Source: Candidatus Nanopelagicales bacterium (GTDB taxonomy: Bacteria > Actinomycetota > Actinomycetes > S36-B12 > UBA10799). Taken from it: 64,000 bases of DNA. Below, in pieces: positions 28,670 through 62,413 of this stretch. The DNA is taken from the NCBI GenBank assembly GCA_041674545.1, contig JBAYVO010000001.1:89057-153056 (forward strand), given 5' to 3'. The notes under the pieces were generated by a model. The model saw nothing but the letters and a program-made list of their open reading frames with translations. It made no database searches and was not told where the DNA came from. A program made the position numbers and the translations under genes. The first letter of the stretch is position 1, and each line of letters opens with the position of its first letter.

Positions 28670-28939
28670 TCAGCTGTCGCGGTCGACTACCACAGATTCA
28701 ATGAGGTCACCGGAGATGTCGAAACGGTGCAACACGAGGGCAACGTCCTTGCCCTCGGAACGCATCCGGCGGCGGCAATCCTGGCACGCAAGCTCAATAA
28801 GATTGTCTGTGGTGACAGGAGCAGTCTGACCAGCAAGTCGGAGTTTGGCGAAAAGCTTCCGGGGGCCGGTGGGACACCGAAGCTCGACCTCGCGTGCGCT
28901 ATCCACCGACATGCCCCAGACTTCGACCGAAGCCGTCAT
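28670..28939 (-). CDS. Hypothetical protein (89 aa)
   Basis: ORF with a 4-nt overlap onto the glycosyltransferase gene. Only 3 Cys, so no firm Zn-finger call. Confidence 0.5.
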   Translation of the reverse strand: MTASVEVWGMSVDSAREVELRCPTGPRKLFAKLRLAGQTAPVTTDNLIELACQDCRRRMRSEGKDVALVLHRFDISGDLIESVVVDRDS

Positions 28940-30132
28940 GATGACAATCCGTCTAAGGCGCCGCGACGCAGCATATCCTGGAACTGCGCTGACTCAGGCT
29001 TCTCCGGTTTGCGGCACATCCGCATACGTGTAGCGACCTCGACTCCTCGACTGCCCGCAACAGTTTCCAAGCGATCACAGAACCGCTCCAGGACCCGGGT
29101 CCAGCTCACCATGTTCGGGAGCGTGCGAGCGGCAACCTCGCCGCGACGCGCCGCCTCAGAACGATTGTTGTAGATACCGAGCATGATCTCCGCGAGATGG
29201 TCCTCATCCGCGATAGCCGCTCGCGCCTTGAGACCGGAGAACGTTTCCTTCATCTCGAACCGCAGCGGATAGGCGTACTGATCGCTCATCCACTGCGCGT
29301 GCCCGCCCACGTTGGTCGCCACGACCGCACCACCGGTGGAGGCGAACTCGATGGCCGGTCGGTTCTTTCCCTCGCCCCAGGACGGCGCCAGCAGCACGTG
29401 CGACTCACGGTAGAGCGCGTGAACGGCCTCGACCGACCACATCTCCCCGATGATCTTCAGACCCGAACACCAGGACTCCATGGCCGGATGCAGACCGGGA
29501 TACGTGGTCTTGAGGACCAGCTGCGCATCTTGCAACTCGCCCGCGTCGCGCAGCTTCTTGAACGAATTGATCGACACCCACGGGTTCTTGCGTGACGACA
29601 GAGCGCCCAACATGAGAAAACGGAACGGGGACGCATTCCAGTCACGCTGATGCGGAGGAAGTGTCGTCACCCCACCCTGAAGTACAGAAACTTTGTCGTG
29701 GTACGGGCTCAGAGCTGACTTGGACACTTCGTCGTAGGCGAACACCGCGTCGAAGTGTGTCAAAGCCTTGCCCAGGTGATCGGTCACCCGAAACGCGTGC
29801 TCGCAGTTCGCCTGATTGACCTCATCGACGTTGTCGAGAGAATCCCACTCCCACATCGACCACGCCACCGACACCGTCGACACCGAGTACAACCCCGCCG
29901 ACTCAGGAGAGCGCGCCAGCTCCTGGGGGCAGCGATGCGAAATCAACAAATCCACATGCTCGGGAATGGGCTTGGTGATTAGGGCCGCGACATCCGCCGG
30001 GAGCGGGGGATGAACACCGGAAGGGTGCAGATACACATCCGCGCCCCACGCCATCAGCGCCTGAGCAAGTTCAATACCATCTGTGCCGTAACCTGTTTGA
30101 CTGTTCACCGGGCACGACAAAAGTACCTTCAA
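28936..30132 (-). CDS. GT-B fold (GT4-like) glycosyltransferase
   Basis: HVLLAPSWGEGKNRPAIEFASTGGAVVATNVGGHAQWM matches the GT4 EX7E region. Start moved to TTG 30132, which has AAGGAG 6 nt upstream and follows the upstream stop at 30146. The track's ATG 30210 would overlap the upstream gene by 65 nt. Confidence 0.8.
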   Translation of the reverse strand: MKVLLSCPVNSQTGYGTDGIELAQALMAWGADVYLHPSGVHPPLPADVAALITKPIPEHVDLLISHRCPQELARSPESAGLYSVSTVSVAWSMWEWDSLDNVDEVNQANCEHAFRVTDHLGKALTHFDAVFAYDEVSKSALSPYHDKVSVLQGGVTTLPPHQRDWNASPFRFLMLGALSSRKNPWVSINSFKKLRDAGELQDAQLVLKTTYPGLHPAMESWCSGLKIIGEMWSVEAVHALYRESHVLLAPSWGEGKNRPAIEFASTGGAVVATNVGGHAQWMSDQYAYPLRFEMKETFSGLKARAAIADEDHLAEIMLGIYNNRSEAARRGEVAARTLPNMVSWTRVLERFCDRLETVAGSRGVEVATRMRMCRKPEKPESAQFQDMLRRGALDGLSS

Positions 30133-30145
30133 GGTATCTCCTTGC

Positions 30146-30670
30146 TCAACCTGTATTAAGCCCGTAATGGCATTGAAGACGTACGCCTTCCGGCCAGTCC
30201 GAGACCTCATAGACGTCGGGGAGCGACATCAGTTGCGAGCCCCATACTCGCAATCCCGGATCTCCCGAAGCGCTGCCCCACACTTCGGAGAAACCATCAA
30301 CCCGATGCAACACTGTCTGGAAATGCTCCCAGACCATACGAGCCCTAGATTCCGCATCATCTCGCAGCGGGGGCCCATTCAAGGACTCGCGCGAGCAATC
30401 CGCGTAAATCTCCAGCGACAGCCGTGGAAACCGAGCTGTGTTGTGCTGATTAGGACGTGTCCACGCGCCCTCTTCACGTAAAACTGCAGCGGCTTTCCCC
30501 GTTCCCTCCACCACTGCCTGAAGCTTGCGAACGAACAGCCAGACTCCAACAGGCGCAGACCCCACGGGGGAGGCGAGCGCACTCACCACACCGGGAACGG
30601 TCGACAATTTGCGATGAGCGGCGACTGCGAGATCATTGCGCGCCAACAGAGGAAACAGCGAACTTGTCAC
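30146..30670 (-). CDS. Neck/tail terminator-like protein (by position)
   Basis: 174-aa ORF, last of four consecutive coupled neck genes (GTGA overlap at 30667-30670). Function from synteny only. Confidence 0.45.
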   Translation of the reverse strand: MTSSLFPLLARNDLAVAAHRKLSTVPGVVSALASPVGSAPVGVWLFVRKLQAVVEGTGKAAAVLREEGAWTRPNQHNTARFPRLSLEIYADCSRESLNGPPLRDDAESRARMVWEHFQTVLHRVDGFSEVWGSASGDPGLRVWGSQLMSLPDVYEVSDWPEGVRLQCHYGLNTG

Positions 30671-42130: not shown

Positions 42131-42145
42131 GTCAGGGTCCTACCC
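42128..42145 (-). repeat. Start-associated junction motif copy
   Basis: Minus strand GGGTAGGACCCTGACATG. The TAG is the stop of the EndoVII gene. Confidence 0.8.
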
Positions 42146-42973
42146 GTCCAGCGAGGACCGCGCGTGGCGGAGGATGTACTCGTCGAACGCCGCTCCGGAA
42201 ATGTTCATAGTCTCCAACCGACCTAATGTGGTGTTACAGCTGAAACACAGCAGCTGACGAAGACACAAACCGCAGGACTGCCGACCCGGACAACACGCGT
42301 GGTCGTGATCCACAGCCAACCGACGATCACCCGGCGAAGCCCCACAAATGGCACAAACCCACCCCTGAGCATCCGCCATACGTTCATAATCTTCAACAGT
42401 AAGTTTATACAAAAACCAAATTCTACTTACCCAAACCTGATCTAAATAAAGCTCACGCTGATCGTCAGTCATAGAGTCATAACGAACTTTACGTTCAATT
42501 TTACGACAAACTCGGCATACGACCTGATATCCAGATTCGACCGTCTGGTCTTCATAAAAACTAAGCACAGGCTTGCTCTCACCACAGGTAAGACACACCC
42601 GGACGCCATCGACAACCGGGTTTTCCTGATCCTTGATCGAAGGAAGTACATAGTCCGGACCACGCCACTTCTCCGCCTGCTTGGCGTTGGCCTTGCGCTG
42701 CAGCGCGCGGGCACACGGGAGACAGCGTCCGGTAAGACGCCTACCCTCACCGCGATTCTTCTTCACCAGCTGCGCCAGCTCCATCGGAAGCTTCTCCCGG
42801 CACTGCGTGCAGGTGAACTCCGGATCCTCAGGCGTGAGGCCACGGTTGGGCTGACGCTCAGACGGCGTCTGCTTCATGCCAGGGCGGGGGATACCCGGGC
42901 GCCCGGACCCGGGACGAGGAACTCCCTTCCCACCCTTAGACGGCGGACTGCCAACAAAAACTGCGTCTTCCAC
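42140..42973 (-). CDS. Recombination endonuclease VII-family homing-type endonuclease with N-terminal Zn ribbons
   Basis: LAVDHDHACCPGRQSCGLCLRQLLCFSCNTTLG is the EndoVII signature. Several upstream CxxC pairs. First gene after the capsid terminator, with a low-GC patch. Confidence 0.8.
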   Translation of the reverse strand: MEDAVFVGSPPSKGGKGVPRPGSGRPGIPRPGMKQTPSERQPNRGLTPEDPEFTCTQCREKLPMELAQLVKKNRGEGRRLTGRCLPCARALQRKANAKQAEKWRGPDYVLPSIKDQENPVVDGVRVCLTCGESKPVLSFYEDQTVESGYQVVCRVCRKIERKVRYDSMTDDQRELYLDQVWVSRIWFLYKLTVEDYERMADAQGWVCAICGASPGDRRLAVDHDHACCPGRQSCGLCLRQLLCFSCNTTLGRLETMNISGAAFDEYILRHARSSLDG

Positions 42974-46875: not shown

Positions 46876-49800
46876 TCAGTCATCCTCCTCATCAGGGTTC
46901 CACGCGAGCGCTGCCGCCTTGACCTTAGCCAAAGCTTCCGCCTTGCCCGCAGCTACCACGAACCTATCTTCAATCGTCAAACCACGGATGTTTGTTACAC
47001 CCTTGCTCTTCAGGTAGTCGATGAACGCCTGACGTTCCGACTGACTGTTAAACACAGCAAGTTCGATGTCATCCAACACCGAGATTCCATGCTTAATCAT
47101 GGTCTCGTTATGGTCTTGAATGCTGGTAGCTTTCTCTAAGCTAAAATCAGACTTAATTTTACGATTGTCAATTTTACCCCAACCATCGCCCTTAAAGGAA
47201 TAGTTGGTAGTTTTTGCCAACACACGCGGGTTTACATAAATTTGAGAGTAATCAAAGTTATTGCCGGTCTGATTAGTGCGAACAAAGTTAAAATGTCCAG
47301 CGCCGTTAGTAATGTCCGGCGGAGAAGACTGACCTTCAATAACCTTGCCCATCATACGAGGACGCGCTTCGTTCGACCACAGACCGCCCGTACGAAGAAT
47401 CGTACGCATATCACCCATACCGATGGAGTGCGTAGCAAAAGGCTTGTTCTTGAGGTACTCCCAGTCCGCATCAAAACGATCCCAGTACGGGTTGCCGCCG
47501 ACTACCTCAGGACGCGCCACGTTCGGATGCGAGAACTTCGGCATGTACTTCTGCTTATCTACAAACTCTTTAACTTGCTCTTTGCTGGTCAATCGAGACC
47601 ACGCCTCGCGCCAACGCTCCAGCTCTTCTTTAGCCTGAAGCGCAGGAGTGCCCTCCGTGCCGCCCGGCAAATTGTCCCGGACGTAATCCACCACGTCTTT
47701 GTGCTTACCCTGCCCCTGGTCCCTGCGATCCGTGAGCACGCCGTACAGGTGGCGCCAGTAGAACAGCTCCATGTCGGTATCCTCCGCAGCAGACAGGTCC
47801 AATCCCATCTGCTGCAGCGCAGTCATAGCTGCCTCGGTTCCCGTATGCGTGCCGTCGTAGTTGCGCACCTTGATCTTCAGACCGCCCTGCTGAGACCGCC
47901 GCACGCCATCTTCGTCGTGCCACGACCGGTACTCGATTTCTGTACCGTCAGGGAGTTCCACAACATACGTTGTACCCGACTGAAGAATTTGGCTATTCCA
48001 GCCCGATGGCTTAGATCCATTCAGAACCATATTGCCGTCATCGTCGATCGAGCCCTGCTCGTAGTAGGACACAACCTTCTTGACCTTGAAACCGTCCGAC
48101 GGAGCTGCAATCTCCGGCGTGATAGCTGGCCTCTTCGGAGGCTCGAACGGGAACGGGTCAAAATCACCGTGCTTAGACTGACCGCCAAAATCGATTAAAC
48201 GCTGTACGTCTTTGATTTTGCCATCGTAGTACGACAGCAAATTCTTGTACGTTTCCTTGGCTTCTGTCCAGTCAGCAAACTGTGATGGATAAATACCCGA
48301 TTCGACCTCAGCAAGCTTCTTCTCAACATCCGCTTTCATGGTATTAAAATTAGCCATGTGCGACGAGTTGAAGTTTTGATCTCCTAACCCGTTGTGATGA
48401 GAAACAGTCTTAGCAGCAGCAAGCGAGAACTGCGAATAGCTAGTAGCTCCCGCGTTACTCAAAAACTCAGTCTTTTGATAACTGTCTGAAACATCTCCTA
48501 CTGTAACCGTATTGCCAGCGCGAGCCACAAGCCACTTGCGCAACTCCTTGTCCGCCTGCTTACGGACCAGCGCAGTCATATGCAGCTCGGTACCACCCTG
48601 CGACGTCTTCACCTCTTGCGCCAGAACGTAGTTCTCCTCCAGCGCATTGCCGCCAAAGAAAGTAGAAGCTCCCGCATGTCCGGCTTCCTTCACCCGGGTG
48701 AGATGGTCCTCCGAAAACCCGGAGAACACATGCTTGCCGAGGCTCTGGCTCTTGGCTGGCTTCTCGCGACCCAGCTGCGAGTAAATACCGTCCCAGAACT
48801 TCTCAAAATCCTCGGACAATGCGTTCTTACGCGCCAGCGCCTGCGACACCAGGTCAGGCAGATCCTTGGCAGACGTCCATCCAAAGTTGGTGCGGTTCTG
48901 TAATCCCTCAGTGATTGTCGAACCCCAGGACGCATCCGATACCGACGACGTCTTCCGTGCCTGCGCCATAGATGCGAGGTACAACGAGTCCACATCCGCG
49001 TCGGAATACTTTCCTGACAACGCAGCCTTGTAGACCTTGTCGTAGTAAGGGGTGGTCCAGTCGGACAACTGCCCGACCTTCAGCTGCATAGAGCCCGGCT
49101 TGCCGAAACGCACGAAGGAACGGGCGATGTCGATCGGCATCACGCGCTTGCCATCGGGCATCAACAGGAAGTTGTTGCCGTGAGCGTCATCGTTTGCTGT
49201 GGCCCAGTCCTGCACGTGCGCGGCCATCAGATCCTTGAGTGCCGAGATGGGCAGGTCAACAGGATCAGTGTTCATCAAGGTTCCCTGGCTGGGGACCTTG
49301 GCCTGGAACTGGCCGAACTTGCCATTAAACGTTCCCAGCTCCGACGCGGCAACCCGGAATCCCGCAAGCTCCGCCAACTTGTGGCTGGCGTGCTCGATCT
49401 CAGCGCGGAACTTCTCAGGAGCGACCTTGAACAGGAACGGGTTGCCCTGCTCATCGGTCAGCTGCCAGATCTCCGAAGACGAGCCACCACCGAGCGGAGG
49501 CTGCTCCGCATTCATGGTGTAAGTCTTCTTCTCAAGCTTCAACGCATCATGCACAAAGCCCAGCAGTGCAGGAACGTTGTAGTGTGAATCCTCGTAAATC
49601 TTGCCCAGCAAATCCTGCATCTGCTGCTTGGCAAAAGCCGGGCTCTTGAACGTGGCAGAACCTTCAGGGGCCGCAGCTACCGCGTGCAGCGCGACCAGCT
49701 GTGCCTTTACCTCGGGCGTCTGACTAGTCAAGAACTCAACAGACTTGTCACTGACACCAACATGGTTCAAATAAGTATCAAGCTGACTGTTGTTCCATCC

Positions 49801-52800
49801 CTGCACCGCAACCTTGGAATAATCCATTTCAGGAAAACCTTCGGGCAACGGGACTGCATAGCCGGGAGCGTACTTCTCCACTGACGGAAGAATAGGCGAA
49901 GAATGAATGTCGCCCTCGTTGACATTTTTCTGTCCAAGATACGAGAGAGAATCAGTTCCCAGCTTGTTCCCTGAAGCGTGTGCGATTGCCCAAGAACGCT
50001 TTTGGCTACTGCTTAACCCTGTAGGATGCTGCATGTTTGCGGCAAGCAAATACGCATCTACAGTCTCACTCTGCCAAAGATGCCAAGAGTCAGTGTTGGG
50101 CCACGATCCGTCAACTTTGATTCCAGCAGGAATCTCGCCTGAGACTAACGGCGGCATCTTCTTCTTGACGAAGCCGGACGCGTTCACCGGGTTTTCAGGA
50201 GAACCCGGGTGCACCTTGCGCTTACCGTGCTGCTGAACCTTCTTGGACTCGATCTCGTAAGCCTTGTCCCACTCACCGTTGGCCCACGCGTACATCCACG
50301 CGACCAAGTCTTCCTTCTTGGTCGAGCTGTTCAGATGCTTGGCTGCAATGTTCTCGAACCCGGAATCCTTGGCCCACTTCTTCGCAGACGCCAACAGCAC
50401 CGGCTTCTCGACCCAGTCCGGCCTGATGTGCCCCGCCACCATGAACGGCTGCAACACCGGGGCGTCCGCATCGAACATGTGCGACGGCGTAGACGCGACC
50501 GGAGAGTTCTGCGGTGGCACCCAGAACATGTCACCGGACTCCACGGCGTTCATGAACTCATCGATGTCCATGTTTGGGCCACTGGCGTCCAGCGTGACGT
50601 GCATTCCCTCGCCGTCGGTCCAGGTGCCCAGCTGCACCCCATTCCAATAACCGTCCGGCGAGACCTCATCGGGCGCGTCCGGGGTGTTGGGGACCGGGTC
50701 GACCGCAGGAGCCACCGATGGGCCGTCGTAGACGCTGTCGAGCTTGGAGACCAGCTCTTCCGGGCTGTAGACCTTCAGCACCGAGCCATCGGCATCGATC
50801 TTCTGGACGAGACCGTCAGGATCGAACTTGTAGTGCGCCACCTGCGGGGCAGCACCCGTAGACAGCAGGTTCCCCTGGCCCAGGCCAGTCAGATACACAA
50901 ATTGGTTATTCTTCGCAGCAGTCTGGAAAGCCTGCGAGAACGGCGTGGTAGTCGGCGCCCACGCGTCCTGCATAGAAGCGTTGCCTGCTTTGGCTACCAG
51001 GTCGCCCAGGTACGGAGACTGCAACGCAGCGCCCGCCTGATCCTCCAAAGACGGGGGCCCGGAATCCTCCAGATCTCCCTGGAACACCGCCGTATGCGTC
51101 TGGAATGACAGAGTGTCATCCATCAGGTTCATGGCAAAAAACGATGGTGAAATGCCCTCAGGCCCGTTCTCGCCTACCTTGAAAACGTTTCCGTTGTACT
51201 GATGCTTGTAATCGCCGATCAGGAACCCGTTAGGGTCCTTGAGCGCCTCGGTCATCCAAGAGTCCGGACTCACCTGCAACGCCGTGGGAGCAATACCCTC
51301 GCTGGTGAGATAGGGCTTCACCACATCAATATGCGCCATTGACTCACCGGATGGCGTCGCAATGAGCACCGAGCCGTCCGGGTACACGCTGTAAGTAGAA
51401 GTCCCTGAAGCGTAGTGACCGACCTGCACTCGATTCACGTAGACAGCATTAGGATCCGTCGGAAGATCCGACAGCTTATCCCAAGTACCTAACTCAAGCA
51501 TACTCTTGACAAGATCAGAATCTGTCATATGAACAGTCTGACCAGAAGACGTGTTAATGCTGTGCGCTGTTCCGTCCGGGTAGACCTTGAGCGCCATACC
51601 ACCCGGAGAGGTGTAGAACCCGACCTCAGGCAACTCCGAACCCGCAAGATCCGTGCCTAATCCGGAGGTCTGGAACTTGTCACCAATCTTGTCGGCGATC
51701 TGTGCAGAACTCAAATTCTTGAAATCTCCATCGTTGATTTCAACAACAGAGTTCTCTTCAGGATTGATCTCGAAGTAAGTTCCGCCCTCGAAATAACCAT
51801 CATCGGTGTCGATGTACCCGGAAGAACTCCAGAAATGGGTTTCACCAGTCTTGTGCGCCTGCTGGAACGCGTCCGCAAAAGAATTGTCAAAAATGCCATC
51901 CGTGTCCTTGGCATTTTTGACCAATTCCTGCAGCGAAAGAGAACCGCCCGACACGTTGGTGGTCGGCGGACCACTGAAGAAATCTTCCACCGGGTCCGGC
52001 GCGCCCACATCTACAGGAGTGACATCCGGATCCGAATCAGGTCCAGTCACAGGCGTCGGGTTGGACGCCATGTTGTCGGCCTTGCCCTGCAGGACAGCGA
52101 TAACCGCTTCCTTGAGCTTGCCGTAGTGAACCTTGCCGTTACCGCCCTTAAACGGAGCAGACAGCGGGTCCGCCTCGATGAAGGTCTTGAGATCCGCCTT
52201 GGCGAGCGGAGAGTCAATCGCCTTGAGCGGCGCCTTCACGCTAGTAGAGCTGGAATTCTTCACCGCATCGATAGCGTCGAGAATTTCCTGCTTGGTAACG
52301 CTCTTCCCTGCAACGGACACCGTAGACGGAGCAGTCGGCGCTTCCGGCGGATTGTTGAGCTGCAGAACAGCATCGTCCATGTGCTTCTGCAGCGCATCCG
52401 ACACGGCCTGCTTCCACGGCGCCGAGTCCAAATGCGAATCGACACCGAGGCTTGCTCCGAACCCGTTCTGGCCCATTCCCTTGAACGGATGTCCCGCAGG
52501 GAGATGGCCCATCAACGTGTAGAACTGACCATCCGGGTCCAATCCCAGCGGCGGGCCATCCCACAAGCTCTTGAGCAACTGCAGCTCGTTGACGCTGGCC
52601 TCGACAGTACCCAGCTGCACCTTGGGAGAATCATCCGGACCGGGCGTCTCGACAGGACCATTCTGACCTGGACGTGTCTTCACATTCAGATAGTCATTCA
52701 ACCCATCGAACAGCACCTTGTTCATCTCATGAGCCGGAGTACGGCCCACGAACTCGCTCCAGTCCACGCCATACGCGAGCGGGTTATGCCCTACTTGCGC

Positions 52801-55800
52801 CAGCTTGCCGGACATCGTTTCACCCTGATCAAAATCGATGTCGGCAAAAAAGTCCTGCATCTCCTTGATCTGCGCCTGCGACGCCAGCACACCCTGGATA
52901 CCCGGGCTGGCGTGCGGAACCTCGGGCAGATCCGCAGCCGGGTTCGGAACAGGAGGGTGATCTGTCTGGTGCTTATCCAGAGCATCCTGCAGCAGCGCGA
53001 TCACAGCAGGCTTGAGCTTGCCGTAATGAACCTTGCCGTTGCCTCCCTTGAAAGAATCAGTCAACGGAGACGTGTTGGCGTGTCCCTGCAGGTCGACACC
53101 CGACAGCGGGGAACCAATAGCCTTGAGCGGCTTCTTCACACCGGTCTCAGACTTAGGCGACTTCTGCAGCGCGTCAAGCGCTTCCGCCACCGCCTGCGGG
53201 GTGACCGGAACACCGCCGAACGAAATGAAACCCGGAGACGCAGGCGCGTGCGTGTGTCCAGAGCCCTGCGGATCCACCGCGTGCAGCGCAGCGTGGATCG
53301 CTTCATGATCAGAAAGCCCGAGCGAGGACTGATGCTCTTCGAGACCGTGCGACTCCTGCAGGTGCGCCACGGCGGGAGCGGCATCCAACGGCGTAGCACC
53401 GGTCTGCTGATGCGCCTTCTGCAACGCGGCAATCAGAGCAGGCTTGGTCTTGTTGTTGTAGTACGCCTTGTACGGCGCGGCTACCTCGTGGAACTTGCCT
53501 GCCGCCAGCGGGGATCCCACGCGCTTGAGGTCCGCCGCGACGTTGCCCGACGGGTTCGCAGACAGAGCGTTGATCGCCTGCTCCAGCTGCGTCGACGTCA
53601 TCTCGAACCCACCGACCAACGCCTTCCCCGAACCCGGGAGAGGCTGGGTGTTCTGGATCGACACGCCCTCGTCAGTGACGTTGTTGAGGCCCGAAAGCAG
53701 CTGCGCGCGAGCAGCCGGATTGTCCGCGCCGCCGACCTTCTTCGCCTGCACACCCGCGCCCTGCGGGTTGTACTTGATCAGATCACCATCGGGCTGCAGG
53801 ACGTAGAGCGTGTCCTTGGACTTGCCCGACTTGTAGACCTGCGAGCCCTCCTCCATCTGCACGGAGTGCGCGCCGACCGAAAACAACGACGGACCGTTCT
53901 TGACCACACCGCCAGGACCGCCCTCGGGCGCTTCAGGCTGGCTGAACTTCGGACGCACCGGAGCGGACATATCCTCGACGACATCACCGGTCTCAGGGTC
54001 CGTCACCGGCTCGGCATCCGCCGGGACAGCAGGCGCGCGACCGTCGAGACCGAACTCCTTGATGTCTTTTAGAATTCGCTTGTCACGGTTGACATTCAGG
54101 AGACTCTCGGCTTCCTCCACAGAGACCTTCTTGACCGAAGCAGTCTCCGAGCCTCCCGGCTCGTACGGAGAAGCGTCATCGGGCAGCGGCTGACCGCCGG
54201 TCCGCTTTCCGACGTACATGCGGACCTTGCCGCCGCCGGAGCGCTTGAAGTCGCCAAGATATCCGGTGATGTCTCCTTCGAGACCGGTCTCTTCCCACAG
54301 CTCCTTATGTGCGTTCTGCTGCGGAGAAAGATTGGCTTCGATACCGCCCTTGGGAAACGTGTGCTCGTAACCTGCGTAGTGATCCTTGGGCTCGTAAATC
54401 CAGATGTAACCGTCAGGCTCGATCAGCGCGATGCCCGTAGCCATCCGGCCCTCGGTGTCCGGCAACGCAGGCTCACCCGGGATCGCGACATCCGGCTTGG
54501 CCGTGAAGTCCGGCATCTTCTGACCGTTGGCGTTCTTCTTGGACTGCGGACGATCGCCAGGCTCGGAAGTGTTCTGCGATCCCGAGGATCCCGAAGCGTT
54601 CTGCTGTCCAAGGACATTCTGCTGCTCTGGGGCCGGGATTCCCTTGGGGACAGCCTTGCCACGATCGCCGGGCTCGGCCTGATTTGGAATCGACGGAGCT
54701 TCAGGAGCAGAGCCCCCGCCCGCCTTAGACGCGTTGAACTTGCGCTGCCAATCCTCATTGAAATCGTCGTCTTCAACTTCGTCGACATCACCGAGGCTGC
54801 CGTTTGCAATCTGCTTTACCGCCACCTGTTGCAGCGGAAAACTCTTCTTAAAGTCAGACTTGTAAATTTCACCAGTTCCGTCTGGATTAACCTTTACTCC
54901 ACCCCAGTTGGAATTATCAGTGAAAACGTAAGAACCCTCTGGGAGCGTTCCATTCTTCTTCAGATCCTCATTCATTTCCATGAGCGGACCCGGACCATCG
55001 GGATCCGGAACATCAGGATCGTCAGAAATTTTTGTTACTGTTCCGTACTGCTTGTGCAGAGAAAGGAACTGAGCTGTCTTAGCTTTATCGCTATCGACAG
55101 TCTCACCCTTGTGAATAGAAGTAGAAGAACCATCCTGGTGAACAATAACCTGAGTATCTTCATCACCAGGCATGTCAACTTTATAAGTGCCTGGCTTCCA
55201 GTTCAGGTCGATAGAACCGCCCTTGGGCGTGGCCTTATCCGCCGCCTTCTGAGCCTTGTTGATGGCCTTAGCCTGCTTAGCAGAAACCTGCTTCACATTT
55301 GGCGAAGGCAGTGCTCCACCAACATCCGGAATCTTCATTCCAGTCTTAGTGTCGTAGTAATAGCCCGACACGTGCTGAAGATGACCGTTGACCATTCGCG
55401 TGTACGCCTTCACGTGCACGATCGTGGCCGCAATATAGTCGTCTCGATCTTCAGGAGACACAGTCATCGCCCACTTGGCGTACGCCTGCATTCCCTGCGC
55501 GGTCAGTCCGACCGTCGGCGCGCTAGCCGGGAAGTAGATCACCAGCGAGCAGCGACAGTTTGGGTGACGCGGAGGCGTACTCAACACCTTGGTGTAGGGA
55601 ACCGGCTCAGAATCAGGAACCTCGAACGGCTCTCCGAGCGGCACGTGCTGACCGTGCAAACGAGTACACATGGGGCACGGAGGGTTCACCAAATCGAAGC
55701 GAGCCACCCACAGCTTGTGTGCTGTCTCAGAAAGCAGCTCCGCCAACGCTTGCAGGAACTGCTCGGTAGCCGCACCACGACCCGCCTGCACCGCCGAGAC

Positions 55801-56241
55801 AACCGCCAGCTCCGCGCGGCGCAGCATCTCCGCGAGCGCCTTAGCCTTGTCCTTGGCACCCTTGGCTACCGCAACCTGGCCAGCCAGGAAATCCGTGACC
55901 AGCTGCGTGCCCAGCTCCTCGCTGGAGAACACCACCGTGTCCATGAGCGCGGTCGGCAGATCCAACGCCTCCGCCTGCGCCCGGCCGAACCGAGCACCCT
56001 CATCGACACCCGCCGACAGCGCACGACGGATGAGCGCCACCGAACCCGCGAGCAACGCAGTGGTGACCAGCGGAGAGCCATCTTCCTCTGACTGCGCGTC
56101 GGTCAACCGCTGGCCGTAGAGCACCCGCATGTCCGCCACAAACTGCTGCTCCGCCGCAGCCGCGAACGTGCGCGAGGTATCCACCAGACCCAGCAGCTCT
56201 ACGAGATCCTGCTCGATCGGCGTCAAAGCCGGGGTGGTCAC
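46876..56241 (-). CDS. Giant MuF-like minor head protein fusion (3121 aa) with Nudix-like, kinase-like and PARP-like ART-like modules
   Basis: Uninterrupted 9366-nt ORF coupled to the portal gene (TAGTG). MuF/SPP1 gp7 motif PPCPMCTRLHG...PPRHPNCRC at aa 187-231. Nudix-like FPKGGIE...KELWEETGL at aa 629-654. Kinase-like GGGSS...FKV...DDAHGNNFLL...IDIARSF at aa 2250-2376. H-Y-E ART-like motifs at aa 2935-3050. Confidence 0.9.
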   Translation of the reverse strand: MTTPALTPIEQDLVELLGLVDTSRTFAAAAEQQFVADMRVLYGQRLTDAQSEEDGSPLVTTALLAGSVALIRRALSAGVDEGARFGRAQAEALDLPTALMDTVVFSSEELGTQLVTDFLAGQVAVAKGAKDKAKALAEMLRRAELAVVSAVQAGRGAATEQFLQALAELLSETAHKLWVARFDLVNPPCPMCTRLHGQHVPLGEPFEVPDSEPVPYTKVLSTPPRHPNCRCSLVIYFPASAPTVGLTAQGMQAYAKWAMTVSPEDRDDYIAATIVHVKAYTRMVNGHLQHVSGYYYDTKTGMKIPDVGGALPSPNVKQVSAKQAKAINKAQKAADKATPKGGSIDLNWKPGTYKVDMPGDEDTQVIVHQDGSSTSIHKGETVDSDKAKTAQFLSLHKQYGTVTKISDDPDVPDPDGPGPLMEMNEDLKKNGTLPEGSYVFTDNSNWGGVKVNPDGTGEIYKSDFKKSFPLQQVAVKQIANGSLGDVDEVEDDDFNEDWQRKFNASKAGGGSAPEAPSIPNQAEPGDRGKAVPKGIPAPEQQNVLGQQNASGSSGSQNTSEPGDRPQSKKNANGQKMPDFTAKPDVAIPGEPALPDTEGRMATGIALIEPDGYIWIYEPKDHYAGYEHTFPKGGIEANLSPQQNAHKELWEETGLEGDITGYLGDFKRSGGGKVRMYVGKRTGGQPLPDDASPYEPGGSETASVKKVSVEEAESLLNVNRDKRILKDIKEFGLDGRAPAVPADAEPVTDPETGDVVEDMSAPVRPKFSQPEAPEGGPGGVVKNGPSLFSVGAHSVQMEEGSQVYKSGKSKDTLYVLQPDGDLIKYNPQGAGVQAKKVGGADNPAARAQLLSGLNNVTDEGVSIQNTQPLPGSGKALVGGFEMTSTQLEQAINALSANPSGNVAADLKRVGSPLAAGKFHEVAAPYKAYYNNKTKPALIAALQKAHQQTGATPLDAAPAVAHLQESHGLEEHQSSLGLSDHEAIHAALHAVDPQGSGHTHAPASPGFISFGGVPVTPQAVAEALDALQKSPKSETGVKKPLKAIGSPLSGVDLQGHANTSPLTDSFKGGNGKVHYGKLKPAVIALLQDALDKHQTDHPPVPNPAADLPEVPHASPGIQGVLASQAQIKEMQDFFADIDFDQGETMSGKLAQVGHNPLAYGVDWSEFVGRTPAHEMNKVLFDGLNDYLNVKTRPGQNGPVETPGPDDSPKVQLGTVEASVNELQLLKSLWDGPPLGLDPDGQFYTLMGHLPAGHPFKGMGQNGFGASLGVDSHLDSAPWKQAVSDALQKHMDDAVLQLNNPPEAPTAPSTVSVAGKSVTKQEILDAIDAVKNSSSTSVKAPLKAIDSPLAKADLKTFIEADPLSAPFKGGNGKVHYGKLKEAVIAVLQGKADNMASNPTPVTGPDSDPDVTPVDVGAPDPVEDFFSGPPTTNVSGGSLSLQELVKNAKDTDGIFDNSFADAFQQAHKTGETHFWSSSGYIDTDDGYFEGGTYFEINPEENSVVEINDGDFKNLSSAQIADKIGDKFQTSGLGTDLAGSELPEVGFYTSPGGMALKVYPDGTAHSINTSSGQTVHMTDSDLVKSMLELGTWDKLSDLPTDPNAVYVNRVQVGHYASGTSTYSVYPDGSVLIATPSGESMAHIDVVKPYLTSEGIAPTALQVSPDSWMTEALKDPNGFLIGDYKHQYNGNVFKVGENGPEGISPSFFAMNLMDDTLSFQTHTAVFQGDLEDSGPPSLEDQAGAALQSPYLGDLVAKAGNASMQDAWAPTTTPFSQAFQTAAKNNQFVYLTGLGQGNLLSTGAAPQVAHYKFDPDGLVQKIDADGSVLKVYSPEELVSKLDSVYDGPSVAPAVDPVPNTPDAPDEVSPDGYWNGVQLGTWTDGEGMHVTLDASGPNMDIDEFMNAVESGDMFWVPPQNSPVASTPSHMFDADAPVLQPFMVAGHIRPDWVEKPVLLASAKKWAKDSGFENIAAKHLNSSTKKEDLVAWMYAWANGEWDKAYEIESKKVQQHGKRKVHPGSPENPVNASGFVKKKMPPLVSGEIPAGIKVDGSWPNTDSWHLWQSETVDAYLLAANMQHPTGLSSSQKRSWAIAHASGNKLGTDSLSYLGQKNVNEGDIHSSPILPSVEKYAPGYAVPLPEGFPEMDYSKVAVQGWNNSQLDTYLNHVGVSDKSVEFLTSQTPEVKAQLVALHAVAAAPEGSATFKSPAFAKQQMQDLLGKIYEDSHYNVPALLGFVHDALKLEKKTYTMNAEQPPLGGGSSSEIWQLTDEQGNPFLFKVAPEKFRAEIEHASHKLAELAGFRVAASELGTFNGKFGQFQAKVPSQGTLMNTDPVDLPISALKDLMAAHVQDWATANDDAHGNNFLLMPDGKRVMPIDIARSFVRFGKPGSMQLKVGQLSDWTTPYYDKVYKAALSGKYSDADVDSLYLASMAQARKTSSVSDASWGSTITEGLQNRTNFGWTSAKDLPDLVSQALARKNALSEDFEKFWDGIYSQLGREKPAKSQSLGKHVFSGFSEDHLTRVKEAGHAGASTFFGGNALEENYVLAQEVKTSQGGTELHMTALVRKQADKELRKWLVARAGNTVTVGDVSDSYQKTEFLSNAGATSYSQFSLAAAKTVSHHNGLGDQNFNSSHMANFNTMKADVEKKLAEVESGIYPSQFADWTEAKETYKNLLSYYDGKIKDVQRLIDFGGQSKHGDFDPFPFEPPKRPAITPEIAAPSDGFKVKKVVSYYEQGSIDDDGNMVLNGSKPSGWNSQILQSGTTYVVELPDGTEIEYRSWHDEDGVRRSQQGGLKIKVRNYDGTHTGTEAAMTALQQMGLDLSAAEDTDMELFYWRHLYGVLTDRRDQGQGKHKDVVDYVRDNLPGGTEGTPALQAKEELERWREAWSRLTSKEQVKEFVDKQKYMPKFSHPNVARPEVVGGNPYWDRFDADWEYLKNKPFATHSIGMGDMRTILRTGGLWSNEARPRMMGKVIEGQSSPPDITNGAGHFNFVRTNQTGNNFDYSQIYVNPRVLAKTTNYSFKGDGWGKIDNRKIKSDFSLEKATSIQDHNETMIKHGISVLDDIELAVFNSQSERQAFIDYLKSKGVTNIRGLTIEDRFVVAAGKAEALAKVKAAALAWNPDEEDD
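52072..53604 (-). repeat. Three diverged copies of a ~65-85 aa module inside the MuF giant
   Basis: Protein copies are (E/Q)xIxAL...(K/R)xxGSPLA...FKGGNGKVHYGKLK(P/E)AVIA(L/V)LQ at aa ~880-945, 1010-1092 and 1310-1390. DNA identity is visible between cttgagcttgccgtagtgaaccttgccgtt (~52111) and cttgagcttgccgtaatgaaccttgccgtt (~53011). Confidence 0.8.
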
Positions 56242-57866
56242 TACGCACCTGCCATCGCGCTCAAGGCGCTGTCGATCGCGTCACGGTCAGTGTTGTCGAG
56301 AGCGACGAACTCGGGAGCGAGATACGTCGAAGCCGACGGAAGGCCCTCAGAAGACAGCTGAGAGGGCAATGCGGGCAGCTGAGGCGTAGGCGCGGGAGCA
56401 CCCCCCGGAAGCGCAGCCTGACCCGGCATTCCCATGGGCTGGTTACCCGGGATGAACTGCTGCTGCGGGGCCACACCCGGCTGCTGATCTGCAGGCACCG
56501 TAGGGATGGGCTGGAACGGCGGCTCCATCGGAGGGGCTCCGACACCGGCCATGAAGTGCTTCACGGTCTCATCGGTCTGCTTCTTCAGCAGCTCATCGAG
56601 CTTCTCGTACTCGATGTCAAGGCCCATCTCACCCGCCATGTACTTCTCCAGCTCCAGCATGAACCGGCGAGTCACGTTGGCGCCCTGGCCAGCAGAAGAA
56701 AGCTTGTCAAACGTGTTCTTGATGGCCTCTTTTTGCTCTTCAGAAAACGGGCCAAACTTCAGCTTTGGATACTTGTCGTTCTTAAAGTTCCAGTCAATGA
56801 ATCGCGGAGTGAGCCAATCGTTAAAAATAGTTTCTAACTCGTTAATAATGACATTGACCAGCACCAAATACATCGAGTCGTTAGGGCCGCCGAACGACAC
56901 CAACGGAGAACCGCCACCCTGCTGATCGTCCAGGAACGGCGCCAACACCGACTTACTCATCTGGCTGTTGTGGTGATTGATGAAATCCATGAACGGGAAC
57001 TCACCCGGGGAACGGCCGAGATCCTCCACCGACCAGCCAATATCCGGAACCGTCACCGACTGCGCAAGGCCGAAGTCCTGCAACGCCATGCGGAACTGGC
57101 TGATCTCCTTGGGAGAGGCCGACGTCGGGTACTTGCCCAGACGCGACCCCACCGCACGGTGCTGCGCCGCGAGGTGCGCCAAGTAGTACAGCTTGATCTT
57201 CTTATCGTAGTGATAAAAAGCAGCGTTAAAGTAAGAAACTCCGTAGAACGGATTCTCTTCCTCGGAGCACGCGTAATAGATCGAGTTCTTGGCTTCGATC
57301 TTCTCGTCGATGACTCGGCCATTCGGAGTCACGGTGCGCTGACGGAACCCGTCGTACTCACCCTGCTCATCGACCGCGAACGACACAGTATCCGAAGGAC
57401 GATACGCGATCTTGTCGAGCGTGTACTTACCCTCCAGCGGACCCTTGCGCGGGCGCGTGTAGACCAGCTCGAAAGGCGCAAACCCGTCCACCGTCGCCAG
57501 CAGCATCTGCGAGACAACTCGATTGAACGGCGTACGCATACCGCCATTCACCGCAGGCAAGGTGTAGAGATTCGTGATGAACTCCGCCTCCTTGTCCCCG
57601 CCATCCGCCGGAACCCAGGACGCACGCTTCGCCGCCGCGCGGGCGGGCATGGTGAGCAGCCGGTACAGCGCACGCGCCTGGCCATCTTGGCGACGCATCT
57701 CTGTCAGCTGCTTCACCGTGGGAACGTCGTTGCGCCCCAGCAGGTACGAACCCTTGGAGTCGAAGCCCTCGGCGAACGGCATACCCGCCAGCCGAATACC
57801 CATCTCCTCATTAAGCTCAGAGTTTTTGGGCTTGACCATTTCGGTGACATTGTCGGGCTTTGCCAC
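56241..57866 (-). CDS. Portal protein
   Basis: 541 aa between the terminase large subunit and MuF. GGAGG RBS and a Pro/Gln-rich C-terminus. Assigned by synteny and size. Confidence 0.75.
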   Translation of the reverse strand: MAKPDNVTEMVKPKNSELNEEMGIRLAGMPFAEGFDSKGSYLLGRNDVPTVKQLTEMRRQDGQARALYRLLTMPARAAAKRASWVPADGGDKEAEFITNLYTLPAVNGGMRTPFNRVVSQMLLATVDGFAPFELVYTRPRKGPLEGKYTLDKIAYRPSDTVSFAVDEQGEYDGFRQRTVTPNGRVIDEKIEAKNSIYYACSEEENPFYGVSYFNAAFYHYDKKIKLYYLAHLAAQHRAVGSRLGKYPTSASPKEISQFRMALQDFGLAQSVTVPDIGWSVEDLGRSPGEFPFMDFINHHNSQMSKSVLAPFLDDQQGGGSPLVSFGGPNDSMYLVLVNVIINELETIFNDWLTPRFIDWNFKNDKYPKLKFGPFSEEQKEAIKNTFDKLSSAGQGANVTRRFMLELEKYMAGEMGLDIEYEKLDELLKKQTDETVKHFMAGVGAPPMEPPFQPIPTVPADQQPGVAPQQQFIPGNQPMGMPGQAALPGGAPAPTPQLPALPSQLSSEGLPSASTYLAPEFVALDNTDRDAIDSALSAMAGA

Positions 57867-60485: not shown

Positions 60486-61079
60486 TCATTGTTGTGCAAG
60501 TTTCGCCCATACAATTACGTTCGAGAGGTAACGATGGGCTGCGCGATCCAGCGTTCCGCCGCACGTGATCAAGCGCAGCTCGGCACCAGAAGTGTTCTGG
60601 TACACATCAGCTGTGGGAAATTCATTCTTGTCAATAGTTGACGTTCGGTACACCTCGAACGCCGCGACAGTCCCATCCTCGCGCTGAACCTCAATGCGAT
60701 CACCCTCGACCACGCTCTTGAGGTTGGCGAAGATTCCCTGCTCACCGCCACCGTTGACGTGCCCCAAGATGACGGCCGGTCCCTTAGCGCCCGGACGAGG
60801 GCCAAGGTTGTACCAGGACGCCAGCATGGGCTGCTCGACCGGAGGCTCCAAATGTCCGCCCCGAGCATCGAGTCCCAGCCCGTCAACCATGACAGGACCA
60901 TCGATGTTGCGCGCGAACACCGATACATTCACCGGACGCGGCTGCACACCAGGCAGAACATCAGCAGGCGCAGACTGCGCGGGCGTGCTCGGCGCGTCCG
61001 GAGCCGCTGCAGTCCCACACCCAGCCAGGACTGCAGCGAACACCAGAACAGAGGCCAAAAGCCCCGCTACACGACTCAC
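60486..61079 (-). CDS. Class F-type sortase, lipoprotein
   Basis: Lipobox AAVLAGCG. ASWYNLGPRPGAKGPAVILGHVNGGG (His), FANLKSVVEGDRIEV, AELRLITCGG (Cys) and RYLSNVIVWAKL (Arg) give the actinobacterial class F sortase layout. Confidence 0.8.
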   Translation of the reverse strand: MSRVAGLLASVLVFAAVLAGCGTAAAPDAPSTPAQSAPADVLPGVQPRPVNVSVFARNIDGPVMVDGLGLDARGGHLEPPVEQPMLASWYNLGPRPGAKGPAVILGHVNGGGEQGIFANLKSVVEGDRIEVQREDGTVAAFEVYRTSTIDKNEFPTADVYQNTSGAELRLITCGGTLDRAAHRYLSNVIVWAKLAQQ

Positions 61080-61729: not shown

Positions 61730-62413
61730 CTATGCAGTCTCACTTACACAAGTGTAAGTAGGAAAGCTGTCGTCCGCGTTTGATCGTGTGCAGCGGATGT
61801 TTTCCAACGGGCTAGAACTAGGAAAAATGAACTCCGCTGGCGGCTGACCCGGAGCACCCGCAGGTCCCTGCGCCCCAGGCGGACCCGTGTCGCCCTGCGC
61901 CCCCTGCACGCCCTGAGGACCCTGCACGCCCTGGATACCCTGCGCGCCAGCGGTGCCCGGCTCACCCGGAGTACCGGCCGTACCTGGCTCACCAGGCGTA
62001 CCCGCGATACCCGGCTCACCAGGAACACCCTGCGGGCCCGTAGCACCGGGGATGCCCGGAATGGGGGCGATCTTGACCCGCTCAGCCTGCGAACACAGAC
62101 CGGACGGCAGAGAACTCTTGGCATCGGAGTCCGCGCACGCTTCAGAGATTTGGCTCGCCAGCGTCTTAGCCTGCCCAGCGGTGGCATCGCGCTGCTGCAC
62201 CACCAAATCCTTCTGGGTGGTGACATTTTCGACCTGGCGGTTGCTGGTCTTCACGGACAACACCAACGCCGTAGCCGCAACGATGAGAGCAACCCCGACC
62301 AGCACCGGCCACAGACGCTTGAGCAGCGAAAGAAAATCCGGACGGTTATGTCGAGAACGATTTTTGGGACGGTTCGCGGGTACGCCCGCAGGCATCGGGA
62401 ACGCTCGGGTCAT
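61730..62413 (-). CDS. TM-anchored collagen-like protein
   Basis: Basic N-terminus, a TM segment ([20 protein letters not shown]), a short coiled coil, 24 uninterrupted G-X-Y triplets and a ~35-aa Cys-containing C-terminal knob. Confidence 0.8.
61842..62057 (-). repeat. Collagen-like G-X-Y repeat tract (24 triplets)
   Basis: [72 protein letters not shown]. Confidence 0.9.

Follow-up and report, generated by a model that had tools for sequence, protein, structure and literature searches.

A predicted protein-kinase-like domain in a giant polyvalent phage head protein

A kinase-like active site among phage head genes

What might a protein-kinase-like active site be doing in a gene that lies among phage head genes? 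The question is raised by a 64,000-nucleotide stretch of DNA from Candidatus Nanopelagicales bacterium (GenBank assembly GCA_041674545.1, contig JBAYVO010000001.1, positions 89,057 to 153,056; we call this whole stretch "the window" and count positions from its first nucleotide), which contains a minus-strand gene for a polyvalent, multi-domain head protein. An initial annotation, made from the sequence alone, had flagged four strings in the interval 49042-49494 that resemble the catalytic motifs of PI3K/PI4K-type kinases and of HipA, had taken the protein to be a MuF-type virion protein, and had proposed that it phosphorylates a host target upon entry. Our analysis of the conservation and predicted structure of this region indicates that it is very probably an active phosphotransferase with a kinase fold, and that the kinase is most likely one effector module of a polyvalent head protein which also carries a MuF-like domain, a NUDIX domain and a conserved C-terminal module. 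The gene and the parts of the kinase-like domain are as follows:

46876-56241, minus strand: whole gene of the polyvalent multi-domain head protein, 3121 amino acids, GTG start, stop codon at 46876-46878 (from the open reading frame (ORF) list and its translation)
48757-49524, minus strand: protein-kinase-like domain of the HipA / PI3K-PI4K type, residues ~2240-2495 (homologues, AlphaFold2, Foldseek, hhalign)
49465-49497, minus strand: Gly-rich loop PLGGGSSSEIW, residues 2249-2259 (the loop ahead of strand 29-34 in the model)
49393-49428, minus strand: β3 Lys K2272 (nucleotides 49426-49428) and helix-C Glu E2283 (nucleotides 49393-49395), located in the model on strand 39-44 and on helix 48-63, respectively
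49171-49218, minus strand: H2342-x2-D2345-W ... and catalytic loop D2352-A-H2354-G-N-N2357 (conservation; alignments with HipA and PI4KB)
49129-49131, minus strand: Mg-binding Asp D2371, which corresponds to the Asp of DFG (the motif reads "IDIA" in the window and "IDKG" in most relatives)

With the first nucleotide of residue i at 56241-3(i-1), the flagged interval corresponds to residues 2250-2400, and all four strings are indeed present in the minus-strand ORF; they are the Gly-rich loop above, FKVAPEK (residues 2271-2277), a helix C-like string AEIEHASHKLAE (residues 2280-2291), and ANDDAHGNNFLLMPDGKRVMPIDIARSF, which includes the catalytic loop and the Mg-binding Asp (residues 2349-2376). 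The initial annotation named no strand; the residue numbers that it assigned to D2352, H2354, N2357 and D2371 are exact. The interval itself was correctly placed inside the domain but drawn too tightly, as the Gly-rich loop begins 3 nucleotides outside it and the domain, with its helical C-lobe included, is larger. Plus-strand ORFs that overlap the interval were set aside because the minus-strand frame is the one kept in homologues.

Conservation of the active site

An exhaustive HMMER search of 1.84 billion representative sequences, with residues 2150-2560 as the query, found 550 representative proteins at E ≤ 1e-3, of which 255 also pass E ≤ 1e-10 and 28 pass E ≤ 1e-30. Almost every one of the 550 is 1000-4100 amino acids long, and the kinase-like family comprises at least 550 clusters at 50% identity. 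The exhaustive search was needed, since a word-index homologue search with the window domain gave no match and one with the family profile gave a single 290-amino-acid hypothetical protein. These proteins have largely escaped naming: all ten of the relatives we looked up are unnamed or called "hypothetical protein", the kinase region has no match in NCBIfam, and a Pfam scan of 15 full-length relatives found NUDIX in two, WGR (a domain elsewhere typical of PARPs) in one, and otherwise almost nothing. Many of the giant relatives (P0008-P0138 in our set) share an N-terminal motif, R-x-V-x-T-P-E-G-A-K...P-I-G, that the window protein does not have.

Conservation was measured in an alignment of 151 domains (the 150 best matches and the query), many of which are merely ~26-35% identical to the query. 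Three aspartates, D2345, D2352 and D2371, are present in every sequence, and K2272 (149 of 151), H2342 (146), Q2313 (a Gln in the last N-lobe strand; 144), N2357 (143) and E2283 (139) are nearly always kept; the Lys, catalytic Asp, Asn and Mg-binding Asp occur jointly in 141 of the sequences. H2354 is less conserved (103/151, with K or R elsewhere). In the Gly-rich loop, G2252 is kept in 113, the family consensus is GGxHxK with Ser at the His position in the window clade, and the serines of GGGSSSE are not conserved across the family. Because the catalytic residues are invariant or nearly so down to ~26% identity, this pattern of sequence conservation is the signature of an active site under selection.

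Predicted fold

An AlphaFold2 model of residues 2230-2560, built on a 35-sequence alignment, has a mean pLDDT of 92.2 and a pTM of 0.80. In model numbering, the N-lobe contains strands 12-14, 29-34, 39-44 (which carries K2272), 71-76 and 79-85, with helix 48-63 (which carries E2283) between them; the catalytic loop follows helix 103-119, the Mg-binding Asp has a short strand on either side, and the C-lobe is helical (helices 170-261, pLDDT 94-98). The labels Gly-rich loop, β3-like and helix C-like that the initial annotation had attached to its strings agree with this secondary structure. Foldseek comparison of the model with the Protein Data Bank (PDB) gave 1315 matches at E ≤ 1e-3, and among the 50 matches listed all are protein-kinase-like enzymes. 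A bilobal fold had been set beforehand as the test of the kinase claim, and the claim survived it. The model thus predicts the features expected of the protein-kinase-like superfamily, a β-rich N-lobe with helix C followed by a helical C-lobe; the β3 Lys and the helix-C Glu are recognizable both by conservation and by their position in the model, and the catalytic-loop Asp and Asn (D2352, N2357) are followed downstream by the Mg-binding Asp (D2371).

The best superpositions in the PDB are with HipA (4pu5; query TM-score (TMq) 0.43, root-mean-square deviation (rmsd) 7.8) and the secreted, HipA-like kinase CtkA (3akk; TMq 0.42, target TM-score (TMt) 0.47). In the BFVD collection of predicted viral structures, giant-virus PI3Ks superpose at TMq 0.45 and rmsd 6.5.

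Relationship to HipA and to PI3K/PI4K-type kinases

The initial annotation had expected the four residues D2352, H2354, N2357 and D2371 to fall on the catalytic positions of known kinases, and they do so in E. coli HipA, where hhalign with the family profile pairs them with D309, H311, N314 and D332, respectively (E 2.8e-4, probability 41%, 47 columns only), as well as in PI4KB (DRHNGN...IDFG). When the family profile was compared with the PDB, the catalytic loop and the following Asp aligned with PI4KB, Vps34, DNA-PKcs, the Fam20 kinases and HipT, all with marginal E-values; the PI4KB alignment covers WLLDNDDSHGENFLLSPDGRVVGIDKG (PDB E-values 0.5-1). The loop and Asp read DAHGNN and IDI in the window and DDxHxxN and IDKG in the family, as against DRHNGN...IDFG in PI4KB, so that the PI3K/PI4K type of catalytic loop and DFG equivalent can be recognized here. 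The window sequence alone gave an insignificant match to HipT (7ab5) in the PDB sequence search, yet that match aligned WATANDDAHGNNF with WLLGNNDMHLRNF.

Pfam scans of 35 individual family members gave HipA_C in 23, PI3_PI4_kinase in 11, Fam20C in five and ABC1 in three, all below threshold. The HipA_C matches in the 23 members cover the N-lobe with its Gly-rich loop and β3 Lys (profile positions 3-62). The window sequence matches HipA_C at E 2.5e-5, in the N-lobe only and with 24.5 bits against a cut-off of 30.5 (scanned as a 301-amino-acid piece), and the best match of any member to this family is E 6e-8, also below threshold. PF00454 (PI3_PI4_kinase) has no Pfam match in the window protein, and its best match among the 11 of 35 relatives, E 3.5e-5, lies below threshold. 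The N-lobe therefore looks HipA-like, while the catalytic loop resembles HipA and PI3K/PI4K both. Since neither the HipA_C nor the PI3_PI4_kinase threshold is reached, the kinase-like domain is a separate branch of the kinase superfamily that lies outside the curated families. No toxin-antitoxin context of the HipB or HipS kind was found in the window or at the homologue loci, where the neighbours are portal, decoration and capsid genes.

The giant head protein

The remaining recognizable parts of the protein are these:

55543-55845, minus strand: MuF-like head-morphogenesis domain, residues 133-233, presumed to be a capsid-targeting anchor (Pfam, PHROG, position after Portal_Mu)
54067-54444, minus strand: NUDIX hydrolase domain, residues 600-725 (Pfam E 1.5e-10, 41.6 bits against a cut-off of 21.1; PHROG nudix families as well)
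49525-50394, minus strand: conserved region preceding the kinase, residues ~1950-2239, present in ~40-89 of 150 homologues (60-89 for residues 1950-2150)
46879-48756, minus strand: conserved C-terminal module, residues 2496-3121 (a small α/β subdomain, a helical bundle, a β-rich part and a terminal α/β domain)
46915-47547, minus strand: DarT-like ADP-ribosyltransferase-like fold, residues ~2899-3109, boundaries approximate (Foldseek; invariant N3045-E3046)

The Pfam family Phage_Mu_F matches the N-terminus of the giant protein at E 6.9e-4, below its threshold, and PHROG families of head-morphogenesis, minor-head and portal-fusion proteins match residues 107-408 more strongly (E 3e-9 to 2e-5). 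The initial description of a MuF-type virion protein fits these matches, and fits the position of the gene between Portal_Mu and the decoration and capsid genes. A MuF-type domain is found in the same polypeptide as the kinase (by the sub-threshold Pfam match and PHROG) or, in the relative P0039, in an adjacent gene. The same chain holds several enzymatic domains that are unrelated to one another, namely NUDIX, the kinase-like domain and, tentatively, a DarT-like ADP-ribosyltransferase (ART)-like fold. About 2000 residues of the protein match no recognizable family, and its first ~1900 residues are common to just 5-10 of 150 homologues. In the conserved region that precedes the kinase, a Pfam scan found no family above noise, the N-terminal domain of HipA included.

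Several smaller features were also seen in the protein. The Nudix box reads K-E-L-W-E-E-T-G-L, with Lys where Arg is usual. A unit of ~80 amino acids occurs three times (residues 877-946, 1009-1091 and 1310-1390; 52072-53613, minus strand) with the pattern "...GSPL...GKVHYGKLKxAVIAxLQ...", and the region of the third copy is common to ~25 other family members. At least four short units of the form V/L-x-PDG, resembling β-hairpins, lie near residues 451, 815, 1553 and 1619.

The C-terminal module

Residues 2550-3100 are present directly after the kinase in about 120-140 of the 150 homologues, all of which have the kinase itself, and these sequence comparisons place the kinase domain at the centre of a conserved C-terminal super-module. 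The AlphaFold2 model of residues 2495-3121 has a pLDDT of 85. No Pfam family was found in this module in any of the 17 members scanned, and it has no sequence match in the PDB. Foldseek matches its last part to structures of the DNA ADP-ribosyltransferase DarT, 7omy, 7omx, 7omw and 7omv (probability 0.97-0.99, TMt 0.47-0.52, ~205 columns, E 0.045-0.08). The assignment of a DarT-like ART to the C-terminus of the giant protein comes from the predicted model and is tentative because it is without sequence support. Besides N3045-E3046, the DarT-like region has a conserved pattern of R and Y residues, and it weakly matches a "head morphogenesis protein" of Pseudanabaena phage Pan1. Matches of the C-terminal model to the substrate-binding domain of DnaK were dismissed as weak (probability ~0.1).

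Genomic setting

The entire window is transcribed from the minus strand and has ~60% GC. A Portal_Mu gene (56241-57866) abuts the giant gene, and downstream of it come genes for a decoration protein (HDPD), a major capsid protein (Phage_cap_E) and the siphovirus tail. A terminase-like ORF lies further upstream of the portal gene; at the DNA level it is similar to the terminase annotated in Microbacterium phage Magritte, and the terminase-portal DNA is ~72% identical to that phage. The window protein has no record in the contig collection that we searched. A search of IMG/VR with the subfamily alignment found relatives on nine contigs of 34-143 kb (a search with the single domain found one marginal locus), and a scan of the GTDB species genomes found no prophage copy.

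Among these uncultured relatives, P0003, which also has 3121 amino acids and is 56% identical in the kinase region, lies on a 107-kb contig in the order terminase, Portal_Mu, giant gene, Mu-like protease, HDPD, Phage_cap_E, as in the window. The gene for P0069 (2785 amino acids, on a 120-kb contig) lies between the portal gene and the protease and capsid genes. Thus the giant gene lies within a head-morphogenesis block, next to the portal gene, in the window and at both of these loci. P0039 is a protein of 1053 amino acids that consists of the kinase and the C-terminal module, and immediately upstream of it a separate gene encodes a MuF protein of 262 amino acids; this fission of the gene argues that the module is functionally tied to MuF.

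Relatives in cultured phages

A tblastn search of 50,697 phage records with the window domain found no match. The same search with a more central family member did find relatives in cultured phages, at ~25% identity or less to the window family, and 12 of the 50,697 records carry the kinase-like domain. Residues 481-731 of McProf gp54 and residues 31-274 of Phrappuccino gp195 are members by hhalign (probability 99.6% for both, with E 6e-25 and 1e-24, respectively), and Onyinye gp16 is the best structural match in BFVD (E 1.3e-14, TMq 0.62). The next BFVD matches are proteins of the haloarchaeal virus HSTV-2 and of uncultured phages that were automatically named "PI3K/PI4K catalytic domain-containing protein", and further matches include Gordonia phage proteins, a portal fusion and an "ADP ribosyltransferase" of an uncultured phage.

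McProf gp54 (L005:4564-8118) consists of VG15, the kinase and ADPrib_exo_Tox and is annotated as a "minor capsid and ADP-ribosyltransferase fusion"; Onyinye gp16 (L018:4485-8504) consists of the kinase, at residues ~170-440, and ADPrib_exo_Tox and is encoded just upstream of the terminase; Phrappuccino gp195 adjoins a "virion structural protein". The kinase part is unannotated in all three records. A kinase is therefore paired with an ART in three architectures that involve two ART families (the window protein with its DarT-like fold, McProf gp54 and Onyinye gp16). The window type of C-terminal module is not shared with McProf gp54 or Phrappuccino gp195, and for this reason we regard the kinase as a mobile domain that recurs beside ARTs of different families.

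Other genes of the window

The following observations concern other genes of the window and of related contigs. A sortase-domain protein (60486-61079, minus strand; Pfam Sortase E 5e-20) is encoded near the terminase gene, and one is likewise found beside the terminase on the contig of P0003; such a gene points to a Gram-positive host, and the enzyme may serve to attach a virion or surface protein covalently. The region upstream of the packaging genes encodes a protein with collagen triple-helix repeats (61730-62413, minus strand; Pfam Collagen E 1e-15). The tail region contains a second giant ORF (16237-26115, minus strand; 3292 amino acids, with two LysM domains near residue 2930), presumably a very long tape-measure protein, which would imply an unusually long tail, and a Dit-type tail protein (13730-16240, minus strand) that bears Laminin_G_3, Big_2 and carbohydrate-binding domains. 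Within the head gene block, one gene (42140-42973, minus strand) encodes a protein with an Endonuclease VII domain; the related contigs L002 and L004 have Endonuclease_7, an RNA ligase, a 2',5' RNA ligase (2H) and a zeta-toxin/AAA_33 kinase among their head genes. A group-1 glycosyltransferase gene (28936-30210, minus strand) is found further along the structural region.

Possible roles of the kinase-like domain

In the mechanism we propose, the MuF domain would direct the giant protein into the procapsid beside the portal, and the protein, possibly cut by the prohead protease, would leave the capsid with the DNA. Drawing on host ATP, the kinase would then phosphorylate Ser/Thr residues of host proteins ahead of all phage gene expression, and by analogy with HipA and the T7 kinase this might block translation or defence systems. 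By analogy with other MuF-fused proteins, packaging and delivery of the giant protein are reasonably probable; a host protein as the substrate, which is likewise argued from analogy, is a tentative assignment that falls a little short of an even chance. A protein substrate is favoured on two grounds: the structures nearest to the model, HipA and CtkA, are those of kinases that act on protein Ser/Thr, and the T7 kinase provides a functional precedent. Toward the full chain, a capsid-packaged and injected kinase that phosphorylates host proteins, we lean by a small measure.

If the domain is packaged and injected, a ready-made phosphotransferase would act before phage transcription, when host defences decide the outcome of infection, and a NUDIX domain and a probable ADP-ribosyltransferase would arrive with it. 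The same domain is present in the cultured Mycobacterium smegmatis phages Onyinye and Phrappuccino and in McProf-type prophages of M. chelonae/abscessus, which makes the hypothesis directly testable, and the phages and hosts that carry it are relevant to phage therapy.

A number of observations weigh against this reading. The MuF match scores 20.8 bits where the Pfam threshold is 29.6. The gathering scores of HipA_C and PI3_PI4_kinase are both unreached, and the substrate class therefore cannot be transferred by homology; PI3K/PI4K-type lipid kinases also superpose about as well as HipA does. Two features of the family are gone from the window protein and the relatives nearest to it, namely the Gly-loop His and the Lys-Gly that follows the Mg-binding Asp (IDKG to IDIA). 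Packaging, ejection and substrate are all inferred; an intact protein of ~340 kDa would be hard to pass through a tail, and its cleavage is an assumption. Finally, since a large C-terminal module is constantly linked to it and ARTs recur as its partners, the kinase may have a role other than acting by itself on host proteins.

The aligned catalytic loops leave room for an enzyme that phosphorylates a lipid or small molecule, either of the PI3K/PI4K type or like the aminoglycoside and sugar kinases, with for example a host envelope lipid or a metabolite as its substrate at entry. Its case is that the loop and the following Asp align with PI4KB, Vps34 and DNA-PKcs, that 11 of 35 members match PI3_PI4_kinase, that BFVD relatives were automatically named PI3K/PI4K, that giant-virus PI3Ks superpose at TMq 0.45, and that the hosts of the cultured relatives are Mycobacterium and Gordonia, bacteria that contain phosphatidylinositol lipids. 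We nevertheless consider such an enzyme unlikely, as the N-lobe is HipA_C-like in 23 of 35 members, the best PDB superpositions are with the protein kinases HipA and CtkA, and no lipid-binding element was identified in the protein; moreover, the relatives extend to haloarchaeal viruses and to many uncultured phages whose hosts are not known, which leaves no clear tie to hosts with inositol lipids. In its most specific form, a virion-delivered PI3K/PI4K-type lipid kinase would phosphorylate host envelope lipids, of the inositol type or others, where the DNA enters, maybe together with the linked ART-like and NUDIX domains; this is a rather improbable idea, but if true, viruses of prokaryotes would have their first example of an injected lipid kinase.

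The fixed position of the gene, after the portal gene and ahead of those for protease, decoration and capsid proteins, would also suit an enzyme that works in the producing cell or procapsid, where it would be present during assembly given its late structural-gene context, and where it might phosphorylate phage proteins (itself, the scaffold, the portal or the cargo) in assembly or cargo regulation and not act in the next host. HipA-family kinases autophosphorylate, and the Gly-rich loop of the window protein is Ser-rich (GGGSSSE), but those serines are not conserved family-wide, most tailed phages build heads without such a domain (only the 12 records noted above carry it), and it is shuffled among architectures (with ARTs, in portal fusions, and standing alone) in a manner typical of effectors and not of core morphogenetic parts; we think an assembly role improbable. 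Chemistry other than phosphotransfer on a kinase fold, such as AMPylation or glutamylation in the manner of SelO or SidJ, or action in cis with the linked ART-like domain, is suggested by the ART pairing in three architectures, by the C-terminal module present in ~140 of 150 homologues, and by the NUDIX and WGR domains of some relatives, which hint at an NAD/ADP-ribose theme; SidJ is itself a kinase-fold glutamylase that acts on the SidE ARTs. This idea has a slighter chance still, for the phosphotransfer residues (K, E, D-x-H-x-x-N and D) are all kept, the ART partners come from different families with none detected in Phrappuccino gp195, as fits co-delivery of independent effectors, and the DarT-like assignment rests on a Foldseek E of ~0.05. 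An inactive pseudokinase, kept in the head protein for structure or binding, might be read from the departures of the window clade from the consensus at the Gly-loop His and at IDKG and from the family-wide variability of H2354, but is very improbable when D2345, D2352 and D2371 are invariant, K2272 is nearly so, and 141 of 151 sequences keep the Lys, Asp, Asn and Asp together. As for chance resemblance of short motifs in a long, low-information ORF, the window-only Pfam match is weak (sub-threshold at E 2.5e-5) and the PDB sequence search is insignificant, but this explanation is refuted by the 550 homologues with their invariant active-site pattern, the confident bilobal model and the 1315 PDB matches (the 50 listed all being kinases).

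Comparison with known systems

HipA, HipT and CtkA resemble the window domain in their bilobal fold, their HipA_C-type N-lobe and their aligned catalytic and Mg-binding residues. HipA (PF07804) differs in belonging to a toxin-antitoxin context, whereas the window domain is found in a phage head module and, in its family, inside proteins of 1000-4100 amino acids. The PI3K/PI4K enzymes (PF00454; PI4KB, Vps34 and DNA-PKcs) share the catalytic loop and the following Asp but have helical and C2 accessory domains that the window protein does not. In the literature that we searched for a HipA- or PI3K-like kinase in phage heads or virions, no description was found; the kinase toxin of a 2012 survey of polymorphic toxins is a different one, which is lantibiotic-synthetase-like.

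The T7 kinase gp0.7 (T7K) is a Ser/Thr kinase that phosphorylates host proteins in the first minutes of infection and disables many defence systems (PMC13645617). Its kinase family is a different one, with a DPV motif, and it is for the most part confined to Autographiviridae (PMC13645617). T7K is an early product made after entry and not a head-module protein, and we saw no sequence relationship between it and the window domain. If our reading is true, the T7 kinase principle (PMC13645617) would be widened to a kinase that is made in advance, has an unrelated structure and is carried by a different and far larger group of phages.

Proteins in which enzymes (ARTs, Nudix and others) are fused to MuF are thought to be packaged and injected (PMC9503650; PMC5512222). 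The window protein is like such cargo (T4 Alt-type, MuF-ART and MuF-Nudix) in having an N-terminal MuF-like domain, encoded next to the portal gene, and C-terminal enzymes; it is unlike the others in its length of 3121 amino acids, in the number of its domains, and in its kinase and uncharacterised C-terminal module. The cultured-phage proteins McProf gp54, Onyinye gp16 and Phrappuccino gp195 belong to the same kinase-like family and are likewise large proteins encoded in or beside the structural block, and the first two share with the window protein the recurrent pairing with a C-terminal ART; they differ from it in that their C-terminal partner is ADPrib_exo_Tox or unknown and not the 600-amino-acid module.

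Iyer, Burroughs, Anand, de Souza and Aravind predicted in 2017 that polyvalent proteins of phages and plasmids include kinase domains which are delivered and modify host proteins (PMC5512222). The initial annotation had called a kinase in a MuF protein unusual; that was overstated, because kinases in polyvalent proteins had thus been predicted before and because the same domain occurs in cultured mycobacteriophages. The polyvalent kinase clade described in 2017 is described as having lost its whole C-terminal subdomain and as found mainly in phages and prophages from the Verrucomicrobia-Chlamydia group and Bacteroidetes (PMC5512222). Some of the traits given for it resemble those of the window family: a Gln kept in the final strand of the N-lobe (Q2313 here) and an insert between a conserved His and the catalytic Asp (H2342...D2352 here). 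On the other hand, a helical C-lobe is predicted with high confidence in the window domain (the loss in the 2017 clade was stated from sequence analysis, and the two clades are compared by description only), and the cultured relatives of the window family infect Actinobacteria and haloarchaea. The concept of MuF-anchored polyvalent cargo is thus already known, and what is added here is a large, unannotated and apparently distinct kinase family.

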